A stretch of DNA of 32,000 nucleotides, taken from positions 1-32,000 of the forward strand of contig LFSP01000007.1 of the NCBI GenBank assembly GCA_001513145.1, read 5' to 3'. Position numbers and translations under genes: made by a program. The notes under the pieces were generated by a model that did no database searches, was not told the DNA's origin, and saw only the letters and a list, made by a program, of their open reading frames with translations. How positions within the stretch are numbered: position 1 is the first letter of the stretch; the number at the start of each line of letters is the position of its first letter. Positions 15,274 to 26,543 of this stretch are shown here, one piece after another. The stretch comes from Clostridia bacterium DTU025. Its GTDB lineage: Bacteria > Bacillota > DTU025.

Positions 15274-17340
15274 TCAGTTCCTGCCGATGTTCCACGGCAT
15301 CGAATCGATCCAGGAGGCAAGCTGGTCTAGGACATATTGACGCACACGGGACCCGATAAGTTTCGCAAGCAGGTCACCTTGTGCGGAAAAGTCGCCGGCA
15401 GGCTGGCCATCCTGGCCCGCTGCCTTCGCAAGCTCGAGCTGGATGTCGCCGAGCTCCCCGAAGGCGGTGACCAGAACGTCGTCGCCGCCCAGGCTCTCGA
15501 CGATGGTCAGCGCGAACCGCGGCGCGGCGCCGGGCTCCATCGTCGCCTGCCCGCCCAGGACGCGGAGGGTTTGCCCGGAGACCGCGATCTGCCCCTCGCC
15601 AAGGCCCACCTGGCCTTCGAAGGTGGGGTTGCGCAGGCTCCCCGCCACACGCACCTCCGAGCCTGGCATCACCTCAGCCCAGGTTTCTCCCCGCTCCACC
15701 GTGAGAGCCTCGCCGGCCCTCAGCGTGACGTCGACGGCGATGTCTGGAATGGTCGGCACGGAGGAGAAGCCGGCCGTCACGGCGTCGATGGTACCGTCTC
15801 CGACGGTTATCGCTCCGGCCACTGAGCCCTGGGCGTAGGAAAGGCTGGCATCAACCACGGCGTTCAGGAGCTGATGGGACAGGCTGACTTGGCCGGCCTC
15901 AAGGCTCCAACAGTCGCCAGCTCCTTCGACTCTGACACTGCCCCCGCCGAAGTCCGCCTGAAGCGTTGCAGAGCCCAGAGCGATGGTTGGATCAGGCTCG
16001 TGGCCCGCCTGAGCAGCCGCGGCTCCTCCGTCGAACTTCAGTGAGCCACGCACCTTCGAGAACGTGCCCTCAACGCCCTCCACCTCCAGCTCGCCGTCGG
16101 CCAGCTGGAGCTCGCCTGCGAGCCCGGAGGCGTCCACTTTCAGCTGGGCCCTCCAATCCAGCCACCCTCGGACCATCTCCGCCGATGCGCCGGCCCCGCT
16201 TTCAGGCAGCAGGGGTCTTGCGGCGTCCAAGATCCGGTCCAGGCCGGTCTTGCCCCCGTCCAGGCGCGCGAGGCCCGACTCTCCGTCGTATCTGACGTCC
16301 GCCCGTAGCTTCCAGTCTTCAAGTTCAATGGAATCCCACTTGAGGGACGAGACCTCCACGTCGCCGCCAGCCTGCACCAGCGGCCTGCCGCCCTTCAGCC
16401 GGGCGTCAAGCTCTCCGACGAAGCCCAGCTCCGCGTGGCCCTCTGGGCCCGTGATGCGCATGTCGAGCCTGTCGTCAGAGGACTCGCTCAGCTTGAGCGC
16501 TCCCTGGACAGTCAACCCGCCTCCACCTGCGACATCGAACCGCACGTCAGCGGCGGCCAGAGACTCAAGCCCGAGGGGCAGGCGCAGCTGCACGGCCCCC
16601 TCAAGCTGCCACTGGCTTGCAGCGATGCTCGCCGTGTCAACCGCCAGGATGAAGCCGCCCTCGCCGGACCGAGCCTGATCCAGAGCCAGTTCGGCGCTGC
16701 GCACCGCCACAGGCCCGAACCGATGGGTCACAATGACGCAGTCGTACAGGCCGATCGGAGCGTTCCACCCCGCCAGGTAGCTCGACCCGCCGCGCGCGCC
16801 AACGTTCTTCGGCTGCTTCTTCGGCGCTGCGGGCCCGGCGCCGGCGTCGGCCCGTGCGCCGTCGGATCCCCCGGCCTCAGTCGAGGCCACCGACGCCGCC
16901 ACTCCCGCATCCGCCAGCCTCCGGCCCAGGGCATACAGTTGGTCCTCGTGGCCGCGGAACCCGTGGAGGTCCACCCTGACCACGCTGGCCAGAGGGTCGA
17001 CCCTCCCGGAGATGAAGTCCGCCAGGTCGTACGTGATGGCAACCGTGTCGACGCTGATGCCGCCGTGAGCGCCCCGGCCACCGTGACCGCCCTGGCGGCC
17101 CTCGGCGCAGGCCTTGCCGCCGTCACCAGCTTCGATGGTGACGCCTTTCAGCTTGAGCTGGCGACCGTCGATCACCGCCACCTCAGCGACGTCAACCTCC
17201 GCGCCACCCAACAGCGCAGACAGCACTGACTCAGCCGCCACCGCGCCCAGCCACGTTCTATTCTTCACGATACACGCGCCGGCTGCAACTGCCAACACAA
17301 GCAGCGTCAGGCACACGATGCGCCCTCGCCTCATCCGCAT
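15274..17340 (-). CDS. TamB/AsmA-like translocation and assembly module protein (short form)
   Basis: About 688 aa from the ATG at 17340. N-terminal signal anchor RIVCLTLLVLAVAAGACIV. The rest is long, repetitive Gly/Ala/Val/Asp beta-rich sequence typical of TamB/DUF490. It sits immediately upstream of bamA, as in other OM clusters. Confidence 0.55.
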   Translation of the reverse strand: MRMRRGRIVCLTLLVLAVAAGACIVKNRTWLGAVAAESVLSALLGGAEVDVAEVAVIDGRQLKLKGVTIEAGDGGKACAEGRQGGHGGRGAHGGISVDTVAITYDLADFISGRVDPLASVVRVDLHGFRGHEDQLYALGRRLADAGVAASVASTEAGGSDGARADAGAGPAAPKKQPKNVGARGGSSYLAGWNAPIGLYDCVIVTHRFGPVAVRSAELALDQARSGEGGFILAVDTASIAASQWQLEGAVQLRLPLGLESLAAADVRFDVAGGGGLTVQGALKLSESSDDRLDMRITGPEGHAELGFVGELDARLKGGRPLVQAGGDVEVSSLKWDSIELEDWKLRADVRYDGESGLARLDGGKTGLDRILDAARPLLPESGAGASAEMVRGWLDWRAQLKVDASGLAGELQLADGELEVEGVEGTFSKVRGSLKFDGGAAAAQAGHEPDPTIALGSATLQADFGGGSVRVEGAGDCWSLEAGQVSLSHQLLNAVVDASLSYAQGSVAGAITVGDGTIDAVTAGFSSVPTIPDIAVDVTLRAGEALTVERGETWAEVMPGSEVRVAGSLRNPTFEGQVGLGEGQIAVSGQTLRVLGGQATMEPGAAPRFALTIVESLGGDDVLVTAFGELGDIQLELAKAAGQDGQPAGDFSAQGDLLAKLIGSRVRQYVLDQLASWIDSMPWNIGRN

Positions 17341-17451
17341 CACCACGATCCTACATACGCGACACGCGCCCCACATACCTGCCTCTAGCTGGGCGTTAAT
17401 CGGGGGAAACTGGGGAACTGCTTGCCGAGCCAGGCTGAGCCCGCCTGGTAT

Positions 17452-22470: not shown

Positions 22471-23730
22471 TCAGGCCTTCTCTATCCGCTCGATGTCGGC
22501 TCCGACTTGAGTCAGCTTCTCCTCAAAGCGCTCATAGCCACGGTCGATGTGGTAGACTTCTGACACTTCGGTGACGCCCTGAGCCACCAGGCCCGCAATC
22601 ACCAAGCAGGCTCCTGCTCTGAGGTCGGTGCATCTGACCTGGGCACCCGACAAATGCTCCTGGCCTTCGATCACCGCCGACCTTCCGTCGATCCTTATGC
22701 TCGCGCCCATACGGGCAAGCTCCGCCACATGCATGAACCTGTTCTCGAAAACCGTCTCAGTTATCACGGACATGCCGGAAGATACGCACATCAACGCCAT
22801 GAACTGTGCCTGCAGGTCAGTGGGGAAGCCGGGATATGGCATGGTCTTGACGTCCACGCCATCGGGGCGGCTGTCGGCCTGGACGGTGATGGAACCGTCC
22901 ACGTCTTCCACAACGTATACGCCGGCCTCTCGCAGCTTCGCGGTGATGGACTTCATGTGCTCGGGCACTGCGTTCTCAATGGTCAGGGCGCCCATGGTGG
23001 CGGCGGCTGCTATCATCAGGGTGCCAGCCTCGATCCTGTCGGGCACCACCATGTAGCTGGTGGGCTCCAGGGCTTCGACGCCCTCTATCCTGAGGACGTT
23101 TGTTCCGGCTCCCCTCACCCGGGCTCCCATGGCGTTCAGGAAGTTCGCCAGGTCCACCACCTCAGGTTCCTGAGCGGCGTTCTCGATAACCGTCAGCCCT
23201 TGGGCCAAAGAGGCCGCCATCATGATGTTTTCCGTCGCCCCTACGCTGGGGAAGTCAAGGTATATTCGGGCGCCTGAGAGCTTGTCTGCTCTTGCGCTGA
23301 TCTGGCCATAGCCCATCTCTATGTCAGCGCCCAGTGCCGAAAGCCCCTTGAGATGCAGGTCGATCGGGCGCGAGCCGATGGCGCAGCCCCCCGGCAGCGA
23401 GATCGTGACCCTGCCGGTCCTCGCAAGGAGCGGCCCCATGACCAGGAATGACGCGCGCATGGCCCTGACCAGGTCGTACGGGGGTTCGGTGCTATCGATG
23501 GAGGACGCGTCGATGCTGATGGTGCTGCCTTGGCGAGCTGTGGGGGTACCCAGCGCGTTCAGCACGCCACTCATGGTGTCGACATCCTTCAGGTGCGGCA
23601 CGTCCTCGATGGTAGACGCGCCTGGCGCCAGAAGCGCAGCGGCCATTATGGGCAGAGCTGCGTTCTTAGCTCCTCCAACCCTCACTCTGCCCTTGAGAGA
23701 CGCTCCGCCCCTGATAACGAGTGCCTCCAA
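22471..23730 (-). CDS. murA: UDP-N-acetylglucosamine 1-carboxyvinyltransferase MurA
   Basis: 419 aa. [35 protein letters not shown] and the ...[19 protein letters not shown]... catalytic Cys loop are canonical MurA. The start is TTG at 23730. Confidence 0.92.
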
Positions 23731-23971
23731 GTCCTTTCCCCCGTTCCACGTCGGCTATAGGCCGTGAGCTGGTATATCTCTCCCGGCCCTCACGTAGTGT
23801 AGCATCTAGCAGCAAGAATACACAACAGGCAATGCTATGAAATGAAACACCAGTTCAACAACTAAGTAACGGGACGCGTGCGACAGAGAGTGCACCGAGC
23901 GCATCTGCTGACGCCGACGGATGGGCGGTGATGCCATCCGGAGTAACCGGGATCCCCGTGTCTCGCGCGTG

Positions 23972-25181
23972 TACCGGCCTTCGGGCAGAGTGCCGTGCGT
24001 ATGCACGTCTGGAAATGCGTACATGCCCGGATGGACTGGCTTCGGGTGTGCCCAGGCGCTCTCCGAGGGGGTTCTCCTCGAGACAAAGGAGCAAGTGTGC
24101 TTCCTCGCCTCCTTCTGGAGGAGCACACCTCGATCTGCTCCTCCAGAAGGAGGAGTACTCGAACTCTGACTGTGCCGGATCCGTGCGCCGCTCCGAACCA
24201 CCGAATCGACCAACGCCTCTAGCTGGATCTTTGGCGCAGCGCTATCGCGGCGTCGGATCCGCTTCGGTACGACTCACCCGCAAACGGTGCCTTCGGGATC
24301 TCCCCGAGGGGGGTTCTCCTCCAGAAAGAGGAGCAGATGCGCCTCCTCGCCTCCTTCTGGAGGAGCACACCTCGACCTGCTCCTCCAGAAGGAGGAGTAC
24401 TCGAACTCTGACTGTGCCGGATCCACGCCCCGCTCCGAACCACCGAATCGACCAACGCCTCTAGCTGGATCTTTGTCGCAGCGCTGTCGCGGCGTCGGAT
24501 CCGCTTCGGTACGACTCACCCGCAAACGGTGCCTTCGGGGTCTCACCGAGGGGGGGTCTCCTCCAGAAAGAGGAGCAGATGCGCCTCCTCGCCTCCTTCT
24601 GGAGGAGCACACCTCAATCTGCGCCTCCAAACGGAGGAGTACTCGAATTCCGACGTTGCCGGATCCGCGCCCCGCCTCGGGCCGCCGAATCGACCAACGC
24701 CTCTAGCTGGATCTTTGTCGCAGCGCTGTCGCGGCGTCGGATCCGCTTCGGTACGACTCACCCGCAAACGGTGCCTTCGGGATCTCACCGAGGGGGGTTC
24801 TCCTCCAGAAGGAGGAGCAGATGCGCCGCCTCGCCTCCTTCCGGAGGAGCATACCTCAATCTGCGCCTCCAGAAGGAGGAGTACTCAGATTCCGACGGTT
24901 CCGGGCACACACCACGCCAAAGGCCGCGGAGTCGATCAGCGCCTCTAGCTACGTGTTTCTTTCAGCGCTCTCGCAGCGTCGGATCCGCTTCAGTGCGACT
25001 CACCCGCAAACGGTGCCTTCGGGATCTCACCGAGGGGGGTTCTCCTCCAGAAAGAGGAGCAGATGCGCCCCCTCGCCTCCTTCTGGAGGAGCATACCTCA
25101 ATCTGCGCCTCCAGAAGGAGGCGAGCTCGAATCACGCTGCCCCGTCGCGCCAGTGGCCCCACTGGCTCTCGCCGCGTTCCG
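23972..25181. repeat. Tandem array of about five 242-bp units in the wecB-murA intergenic region (non-coding)
   Basis: The unit boundary motif cgcctctag recurs at 24214, 24456, 24698 and 24940, an exact 242-bp spacing. The ORF track confirms this with ends at 24222/24464/24706/24948 and starts at 24287/24529. The three internal units are roughly nine-tenths identical by eye. The first unit (23972..24213) is degenerate in its 5' half. The last unit decays after about 25130. Confidence 0.9.
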
Positions 25182-25284
25182 CGCAGCAAGATCGACCCCG
25201 CGAGCAAACCTGCAGGCCCGCAGCCCCGCAGGCGCACCGGCCCTCTGCCCGCCGCTGGCCAGCCGCCGGCCGTCCAACACCCCT

Positions 25285-26484
25285 CTACAAGCCCAGGAAA
25301 TCAGCCGGGCGCTCAGCAACGATCCCGAAATGGTGTAGCACGGCCTGAACGGTGCGTTCGGCAGCGCGCCCGTCGCCGTACGGATTGCGCGCCTGCGCCA
25401 TGGCCCTGTGCTGCTCGGGATCGTCCAGGAGCGTCGAAGCAGCCTCCACTATGTTGCGCCTCTCGACTCCCACCAACCGCAGGGTGCCGGCCTCTACACC
25501 TTCCGGCCTCTCGGTGGTGCGCCTGAGCACCAGCACCGGCACGTTGAACGCCGGCGCCTCTTCCTGAAGCCCTCCGGAGTCAGACATCACCAGGTAGCTG
25601 CGCTTCAACAACCCCACCATATCAGGGTAGCTCAGAGGCTCCACCAGAACGCAGCGGCTAACCTGGCTGAGTGTCTCGAGAACGGTCCGGCTAACCCTCG
25701 GATTGGGATGCACAGGCATGACAGCTACCGTATCCGGGTGGGATTCCAGCACGTCGCGCACGGCCTCGCAGATGTTCTTGAGCGGCTCTCCTATGCTCTC
25801 CCGACGGTGCGCCGTCACAGTAACCAGGCGCCTGCCCTCGAGCTCAAGCGCCCTAAGCACGGGGTTCTCGAACTCCATGCGTCGCGCCGCCACGTCGAGC
25901 ACCGCGTCGACAACGGTATTGCCGGTGACGTATATGGATGACGGGTCCACGTTCTCAGCCACGAGGTTGGCCTTATACTGGGCTGTGGGCGCGAAGTGTA
26001 GCTCCGCTATGCACCCCACTAGCCTCCTGTTCATCTCCTCGGGGAACGGCTCGTAACGCCTGAAGGTTCGCAGCCCGGCCTCCACATGGCCCACGGGTAT
26101 CTGCATGTAGAACGCGCTGAGCGCGCCCACGAACGCGGTGGACGTGTCGCCGTGCACCAACACCAGGTCAGGCTTCTCCCTCTCCAGCACCTCGCGCATG
26201 CGGGGCAGCCCGCGCTCCACGATGTCGAAGAGGGTCTGGTCGTCTCGCATGATCCCGAGGTCGTAGTCGACGCCGATGTCGAACACCCTCAGGACCTGGT
26301 CCATCATCTCCCGATGCTGAGCCGTGCCCACCGTGACCGAACACACCAGATCTGAATGCCGCCTGAGCTCGTTGACAACCGGTGCTAGCTTGATCGTATC
26401 CGGCCTGGTGCCGAAGACTGACAGGACCTTTACGCGCCTCCCGCCCATGCCCATCCTCGTGCCCATCCCCATACCCGTGTCCAT
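25285..26484 (-). CDS. wecB: UDP-N-acetylglucosamine 2-epimerase (non-hydrolysing), WecB/MnaA
   Basis: VKVLSVFGTRPDTIKLAPV, DLVLVHGDTSTAF, HVEAGLRT and SDSGGLQEEAP are canonical WecB blocks. The ATG at 26484 is preceded by AGGAGG (8-nt spacing), so the Met/Gly-rich 17-aa N-terminal extension may be real. Confidence 0.88.
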   Translation of the reverse strand: MDTGMGMGTRMGMGGRRVKVLSVFGTRPDTIKLAPVVNELRRHSDLVCSVTVGTAQHREMMDQVLRVFDIGVDYDLGIMRDDQTLFDIVERGLPRMREVLEREKPDLVLVHGDTSTAFVGALSAFYMQIPVGHVEAGLRTFRRYEPFPEEMNRRLVGCIAELHFAPTAQYKANLVAENVDPSSIYVTGNTVVDAVLDVAARRMEFENPVLRALELEGRRLVTVTAHRRESIGEPLKNICEAVRDVLESHPDTVAVMPVHPNPRVSRTVLETLSQVSRCVLVEPLSYPDMVGLLKRSYLVMSDSGGLQEEAPAFNVPVLVLRRTTERPEGVEAGTLRLVGVERRNIVEAASTLLDDPEQHRAMAQARNPYGDGRAAERTVQAVLHHFGIVAERPADFLGL

Positions 26485-26543
26485 GGTCGAGTGCCTCCTG
26501 TAATCGCCCTAGCCCTGGGTACCGAGCATTCGCGCAACTGACG

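Follow-up and report, generated by a model that had tools for sequence, protein, structure and literature searches.

The window, by which we mean the whole 32,000-nt stretch of DNA analyzed here, contains a tandem array of a 242-bp unit (24059-25131) between the genes wecB and murA. The array is real, but it is an ordinary kind of feature: it is probably a young non-coding minisatellite in a lineage-specific intergenic segment, turning over by unequal recombination. It is probably neutral; at the very most, its hairpins would form a barrier that separates wecB from murA. This reading is based on the exactness of the array, its absence in four relatives, its variation in copy number, the presence of chimeric units and the lack of any other locus among the sequences searched. 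It is also based on the lack of Rfam, tRNA/tmRNA, Pfam, promoter and recurring terminator signals in the tests described below, and on a folding excess that is confined to the palindromes of the unit.

Both genes that border the array are on the minus strand, as is every larger annotated gene of the window. The upstream neighbour, wecB (25285-26484), encodes a non-hydrolysing UDP-GlcNAc 2-epimerase (TIGR00236, 470.3 bits), and the downstream neighbour, murA (22471-23730), encodes a UDP-N-acetylglucosamine 1-carboxyvinyltransferase (NF006873, 601.9 bits). The gap between them, given as 1.55 kb in the original prediction, measures 1554 nt, and the array occupies about 69% of it. In four relatives with MurA proteins 76-84% identical to that of the window, the gene order is kept and the wecB-murA gaps are 103-174 nt in length. 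These short gaps align with approximately 110 murA-proximal nt of the window gap, where homology resumes at ...TTGCCTGTTGTG. As WecB aligns up to its last residue, the additional sequence begins directly 3' of the wecB stop codon. Based on these two alignments, approximately 1451 nt (23834-25284) are lineage-specific. This segment, array included, is absent in all four relatives, and is present in every fetched locus with an identical WecB protein and in a further locus, L129 (98.8% nucleotide identity).

The segment consists of the array and two unique flanks: 225 nt on the murA side (23834-24058), unlike the unit (z = 0.2), and 153 G+C-rich nt on the wecB side (25132-25284), likewise unlike the unit. 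Decayed units were considered as a source of the flanks and rejected, as local alignments scored no better than shuffles. The murA-side flank shows no excess of folding relative to shuffles (z = +0.56); the wecB-side flank has a fold z of -0.22 and no terminator-like site. A murA promoter-like element is found on the minus strand at 23796-23825, with a -35 sequence of TTGTGT (23820-23825), an 18-nt spacer and an extended -10 sequence of TGCTACACT (23796-23804). The pattern GTTGTG, 18 nt, TG(C/T)TACACTAC shows little or no variation among the window and the four relatives (stretch 23796-23833), and we read this conserved element as the putative murA promoter. The murA leader of the window is approximately 25 nt longer than those of the four relatives.

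The source of the window is an uncultured Bacillota species from biogas reactors, and the accession of one member leads to thermophilic biogas-reactor MAGs. Positions 1-20500 carry envelope genes, encoding an LptF/G domain protein (a 1095-aa ORF), an LptA/LptC-like protein, OmpH and Omp85/BamA, with adjoining sporulation genes encoding SpoIID, an M23 peptidase, SpoIIID and an S55/SpoIVB peptidase. The occurrence of lpt, ompH and bamA genes beside spoIID, spoIIID and spoIVB indicates a diderm spore-forming member of the Bacillota. A 700-aa ORF without a Pfam domain (15274-17376, minus strand) contains an 18-bp tandem repeat at 17059-17096; it is called as 680, 688 or 700 aa depending on the assembly, a difference that may be due to start codon choice alone. 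Another 18-bp tandem repeat, with 2.4 copies of GCCCATGCCCATACCCGT (plus strand), lies at the 5' end of the wecB ORF (26443-26485). It lengthens the N-terminus of the protein by 13-14 MGMG-rich residues, an extension that is absent in the four relatives. The true start codon of WecB may lie downstream of this extension, or the extension may be species-specific.

Tandem Repeats Finder identified a single outstanding array in the window, at 24059-25121 (period 242, 4.4 copies, 90% matches, no indels, score 1620). A repeat search likewise found four copies in exact 242-nt register, with 95, 90 and 83% identity to the reference copy, and the motif cgcctctag was seen to recur at 24214, 24456, 24698 and 24940, as first described. 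When one unit was used as a BLAST query, the partial copy was extended to position 25131. The full units start at 24059, 24301, 24543 and 24785, and are followed by a partial fifth unit of 105 nt (25027-25131). The original prediction was therefore correct with respect to the exact 242-bp register, while its "about five" copies are tandem units that amount to four full and one partial, or 4.4. The range originally given for the array (23972-25181) begins approximately 90 nt too far to the left and ends approximately 50-60 nt too far to the right. Divergence among the units is uneven. The outer copies had been described as more diverged than the inner ones, and the wecB-proximal full unit (24785-25026) is indeed an outlier (77-86% identity), but the pattern is asymmetric in that the other three full units are 87-93% alike.

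On the plus strand, each unit opens with a hairpin cluster of approximately 100 nt. The cluster has three 18-nt palindromes of the form CTCCTCC-N4-GGAGGAG (CTCCTCC-AGAA-GGAGGAG), spaced 32 nt apart in +,-,+ orientation. The five palindrome triplets are at 24074-24155, 24316-24397 (unit 2, used here as the representative), 24558-24639, 24800-24881 and 25042-25123. In a search allowing up to 3 mismatches, the 18-mer palindrome was matched 14 times (0.11 expected), with every match inside the array. The 5-bp cores CCTCC/GGAGG are exact in 11 of the 14 clear palindromes, the remaining three having GAGGAG in the 3' arm, and the second and third palindromes of a cluster jointly form an inverted repeat of 18-22 bp. 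The other 145 nt of the unit (24398-24542 in unit 2) are non-palindromic and carry no excess structure, with fold z-scores of +0.7 and +0.8 on the two strands, no better than shuffles.

As originally predicted, the array is non-coding. None of eight ORFs across it has a Pfam match and the period of 242 is not a multiple of 3, and a coding array was rejected on these grounds. ORFs across the array are short (139-178 aa), but only because the period is not a multiple of 3: contrary to the earlier statement that every unit has stops in each frame, one or two of the three plus-strand frames per unit are free of stop codons. In one MAG, MurA and WecB have consecutive NCBI protein accessions, which suggests that no CDS is annotated between the two genes there. 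The GGAGG motifs were also considered as preceding a small conserved ORF, an idea rejected because the ATG that follows the first hairpin is absent in unit 1 and the frames are not the same from unit to unit.

Other assemblies of the same locus show how the array changes. In public assemblies, 109 blocks are recorded with exactly this WecB protein, and ten loci were retrieved. The locus is assembled in at least 12 independent metagenome assemblies made with various assemblers, and the gap lengths in these assemblies differ by whole units. There are 4.4 copies in the window, L003, L005 and the error-rich L254, 3.4 copies in L001, L004, L006, L007 and L008, and approximately 2.4 copies in L002, while L129 has at least 3.8 copies, with the unit-3 type of the window repeated. 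The 2.4-, 3.4- and 4.4-copy forms occur in assemblies whose WecB proteins are identical. The fewest copies in any assembly seen is at least 2. The array thus behaves as a variable-number repeat, and the array-length variation that was to be looked for in related assemblies is found. L002, L007, L129 and L254 (from the ENA ERZ26478xx-ERZ26481xx assemblies) have very low coverage (0.8-3.8x), and their unit lengths of 239-240 nt and array ORFs are not reliable at the base level; L002, L007 and L254 contain many frameshift-like gene splits.

Forms with 3.4 copies have a middle unit in which window units 2 and 3 are joined as a single-switch chimera. The breakpoints are distinct in L001, L004/L009 and L006, and L008 is of the L004 type with point changes. 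One switch lies inside an identical run of just 2 nt; the longest identical run shared by units 2 and 3 is 97 nt. These observations argue for real recombination rather than k-mer collapse. Copy number and unit composition change via unequal homologous recombination between neighbouring units, and the chimeric units provide direct evidence for the earlier suggestion that the array is homogenized in this way. Their pattern is that expected of independent unequal-crossover deletions and would be hard to obtain by de Bruijn collapse alone in metagenome assemblies.

We propose that, in one species-level lineage, a segment of approximately 1.45 kb separates the wecB stop codon from the murA promoter, and that a 242-bp stretch within it was amplified head to tail. 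The palindromes, which are direct and inverted repeats of one another, would supply short homologies and structures that favour slippage and misalignment. The array itself would have no dedicated gene-like function. A scan of the whole gap for promoters of the sigma-70-type consensus returned no sites, and the only terminator-like site in the gap is in unit 1 and does not recur; the hairpins are not followed by U-tracts. A sigma-54 promoter in the conserved block of the unit (GGCAC-N3-TTGC) was rejected by eye, as a spacing of N5 is required. Since the array has no promoter or terminator of its own, any transcript of it would be read-through from wecB, and the G+C-rich hairpins would at most impede or stabilize this transcript. 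Expression of murA would still rely on its own promoter, which is conserved and lies downstream of the array. An effect of the array on wecB termination or murA expression, as raised in the original prediction, is possible.

The main rival to this explanation assigns the hairpins a role in cis. As RNA structures in the wecB 3' UTR or spacer, they would block 3' exonucleases or terminate or attenuate read-through, and so insulate murA from the upstream operon in the manner of REP/BIME stem-loops in E. coli operons. With its position directly after the wecB stop codon and ahead of the murA promoter, the array is suited to such a function, and wecB is not followed by a canonical terminator. The hairpins are highly stable, at about -60 kcal/mol for each 100-nt cluster, with fold z-scores of -5.6 on the plus strand and -4.5 on the minus strand. 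Their stems are conserved while their loops vary, and the orientation of the palindromes alternates as it does in BIMEs. However, the four relatives do without the array in gaps of no more than 174 nt, the hairpins lack trailing U-tracts, and copies have been lost repeatedly. An array of cis-acting hairpins is therefore a possible explanation, but a doubtful one.

Several features count against a simple minisatellite. First, conservation within the unit is uneven. Positions 186-242 are nearly invariant (1-5 of 57 positions differ between units), positions 101-185 are variable (4-33 of 85) and the hairpin cluster is intermediate (6-13 of 87), so that selection, rather than patchy homogenization, may be acting on the 57-nt block. 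Second, the palindrome cores are uniform, with 11 of 14 exact, and substitutions in the cluster are mostly in loops and linkers. Third, at least two copies are kept in every assembly seen. Fourth, the palindromes have a 32/32/178-bp spacing that would suit cooperative protein binding. The first, second and fourth of these features keep a functional reading alive. A functional array would serve either as a phased platform of palindromes to which a protein binds cooperatively or as a multi-copy structured RNA module with conserved parts under selection, and copy number would act as dose. In a DNA function, the 14 18-bp palindromes may form a chromosomal centromere-like or titration site; in an RNA function, the conserved parts may be the hairpin cluster and the 57-nt block at unit positions 186-242. 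We consider it improbable that the array is functional in this sense.

The more specific proposal of a phased DNA-binding platform takes the 14 palindromes as sites for a dimeric protein in a centromere-like, nucleoid-organizing or titration array. They are perfect or near-perfect 7+4+7 palindromes in far greater number than expected by chance, and both of their arms are equally conserved. The 32/32/178-bp spacing corresponds to approximately 3, 3 and 17 helical turns, and at 10.5 bp per turn all of the palindromes (24074-25123) are within approximately 2.5 bp of one helical face, a phasing that was seen post hoc and disappears if the pitch is taken as 10.4 or 10.6 bp. This proposal is quite unlikely given that the 32-kb window contains no partition, regulator or mobile gene, that the array is known from one species only and that the motif is absent elsewhere in the window.

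Tandem genes for a structured ncRNA or sRNA, comparable to NsiR1 or CcsR1-4, had been offered as a candidate in the original prediction and now appear less likely again. Fold energy is the one positive support for such genes: the whole unit has a z-score of -3.6 on the plus strand and -3.3 on the minus strand. This structure is limited to the DNA palindromes, and the 145-nt remainder shows no excess of folding. Further, the excess in the cluster is alike on both strands, as DNA inverted repeats would give, so no RNA strand is singled out. Two sequence features are in keeping with a plus-strand RNA. On this strand, every unit has an additional CCUCCUC that is unpaired, and CTTCGG occurs 9 times on the plus strand of the gap (23731-25284) and not at all on its minus strand, with 2 occurrences per unit and 2 in the unique flank (about 0.4-0.5 per kb outside of the gap). 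UUCG-tetraloop RNA is a weak explanation for this asymmetry, as the stems that adjoin CTTCGG are just 1-3 bp by sequence inspection. Other tests argue against ncRNA genes. The gap contains no promoter-like site, and the lone terminator-like site of unit 1 is not repeated in other units. As in the original prediction, in which no RNA family could be recognized, the 32-kb window has no Rfam match at the gathering threshold. Generic miRNA-hairpin models give the best sub-threshold matches; the score for CcsR1 is 12.8 bits, whereas its gathering score is 65.3. A tRNA- or tmRNA-like origin was rejected, as none were detected. Covariation, proposed earlier as a check on RNA structure, was assessed with RNAalifold using five distinct unit sequences: not one of the 84 predicted pairs has changed in a compensatory manner, and a slightly unfavourable covariation term was obtained. 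Finally, the nearest relatives lack the array.

It was also suggested that the array might belong, as a single locus, to a family of dispersed or mobile repeats, such as a MITE, a REP/BIME-like element or a satellite. The segment is an insertion relative to the sister species and its palindromes alternate in orientation, both of which would fit such a family. Inspection of the sequence, however, shows neither an inverted repeat between the two ends of the 1451-nt segment nor a target duplication there, and the palindromes do not adjoin the GTAG or CGTC tag that most REP families carry (PMC3733652). Searches for a second copy gave the same picture. BLAST with the unit found no second locus in the 32-kb window or in the fetched loci of approximately 21 kb. 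The whole gap had no match among PLSDB plasmids or INPHARED phages, and two unit patterns had none among IMG/VR viral contigs. Translations of unit-spanning ORFs from both strands, searched against 5.8 billion protein clusters and 1.84 billion representatives, returned only this locus. A 58%-identical ORF, P0146, was considered as a diverged second copy and rejected, as it is from the array locus itself on an error-rich contig with 0.8x coverage. The degenerate pattern CCTCC-N4-GGAGG-N14-22-CCTCC-N4-GGAGG was searched for in genome contigs, and among the matches listed, which are from unrelated taxa, none is unit-like by BLAST. Metagenome contigs with the 18-nt palindrome contain just isolated chance hairpins on unrelated contigs. 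An invariant 20-mer of the unit is present in seven JGI-derived loci and has no occurrence in the metagenome contig collection, which therefore lacks those JGI assemblies and evidently the organism itself, so that this result has no bearing on dispersal. The absence of dispersed copies elsewhere is well supported, if not proven, and membership in a mobile family is very unlikely.

A mis-assembled or inflated repeat is hardly credible: although copy number varies by assembly, the contigs of L009, L010 and L129 terminate inside the array and one MAG has murA and wecB on separate contigs, the units differ by 7-23% and can thus be assembled individually, the 4.4-copy form was obtained independently in the window, L003, L005 and L254, simple k-mer collapse would not give the chimeric breakpoints, and the locus recurs in independent assemblies from different assemblers.

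As a minisatellite, the array is mainly of practical use, as a large-unit VNTR marker with which strains of an uncultured diderm spore-forming member of the Bacillota can be separated. The host species is common in biogas-reactor metagenomes, where the array breaks or collapses short-read assemblies. Turnover of the array is directly legible, in that products of independent unequal crossovers are present in public assemblies. If the palindromes or the 57-nt block were bound or transcribed, the array would be a rare dose-variable regulatory element beside an essential cell wall gene.

Comparison with known systems bears out the earlier statement that this is not a CRISPR array, a set of iterons or an ordinary group of REPs. 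Unlike CRISPR spacers, the segments between the palindromes are themselves repeated; the palindromes alternate in orientation and no Cas domains are found in the neighbouring genes. The segment does not have the terminal inverted repeats or further copies of a MITE, in the sequences searched. The partition site sopC of plasmid F consists of 12 x 43 bp, with a short inverted repeat in each. The array is like sopC and parC layouts in the regular spacing of its short inverted repeats, and is unlike sopC in its chromosomal location, its much longer period and the absence of partition genes nearby; the window contains neither a partition gene nor a replication-initiator gene of the kind associated with partition sites and iterons.

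Among tandem small RNAs, the CcsR1-4 or 'cuckoo' RNAs with CCUCCUCCC motifs (Rfam RF02791) are similar in being arranged in tandem and in carrying CCUCC motifs that resemble an anti-Shine-Dalgarno sequence. In the array, in contrast, CCUCC is mostly paired with GGAGG in stems rather than exposed in loops. NsiR1 of Nostoc sp. PCC 7120 is encoded by 12 tandem sRNA genes of approximately 60 nt, each with its own promoter (PMC9045159). Like NsiR1, the array is made up of direct repeats in tandem and lies in the intergenic region ahead of a gene. It differs in its lack of a promoter-like site in the gap, in having a terminator-like site in unit 1 only and in its restriction to one species; there is neither a promoter and terminator for each unit nor conservation in related species.

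REP and BIME elements are closer. Like these, the array has short G+C-rich palindromes that alternate in orientation and are clustered in an intergenic region or 3' UTR (PMC3733652; bioRxiv 10.64898/2026.03.23.713779), and, as with these elements, it may have a role in termination or in the stability of mRNA 3' ends. Where REP/BIME clusters have alternating palindromes of 20-40 nt, the array has 18-nt palindromes in +,-,+ order. REPs occur in high copy number genome-wide, in contrast to the palindromes described here: all 14 are in one array, with none elsewhere in the 32 kb or in the fetched flanks, and they are part of a 242-bp unit of which 145 nt are non-palindromic.

The closest counterparts of the array are minisatellites. 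MIRU units are roughly 40-100 bp in length, and the family is dispersed over tens of loci. The array differs from these in its 242-bp unit, its single locus, its three palindromes per unit and its occurrence in one uncultured species. As in the MIRU loci of Mycobacterium tuberculosis, which are bacterial minisatellite/VNTR loci (PMC3635867), non-coding repeats are arranged head to tail in an intergenic spacer between co-oriented genes, and closely related strains differ in copy number via slippage or unequal recombination. All three of the properties by which a minisatellite or VNTR is recognized, namely a head-to-tail unit of more than approximately 10 bp, copy number variation between strains and a non-coding sequence, are found in the wecB-murA array.
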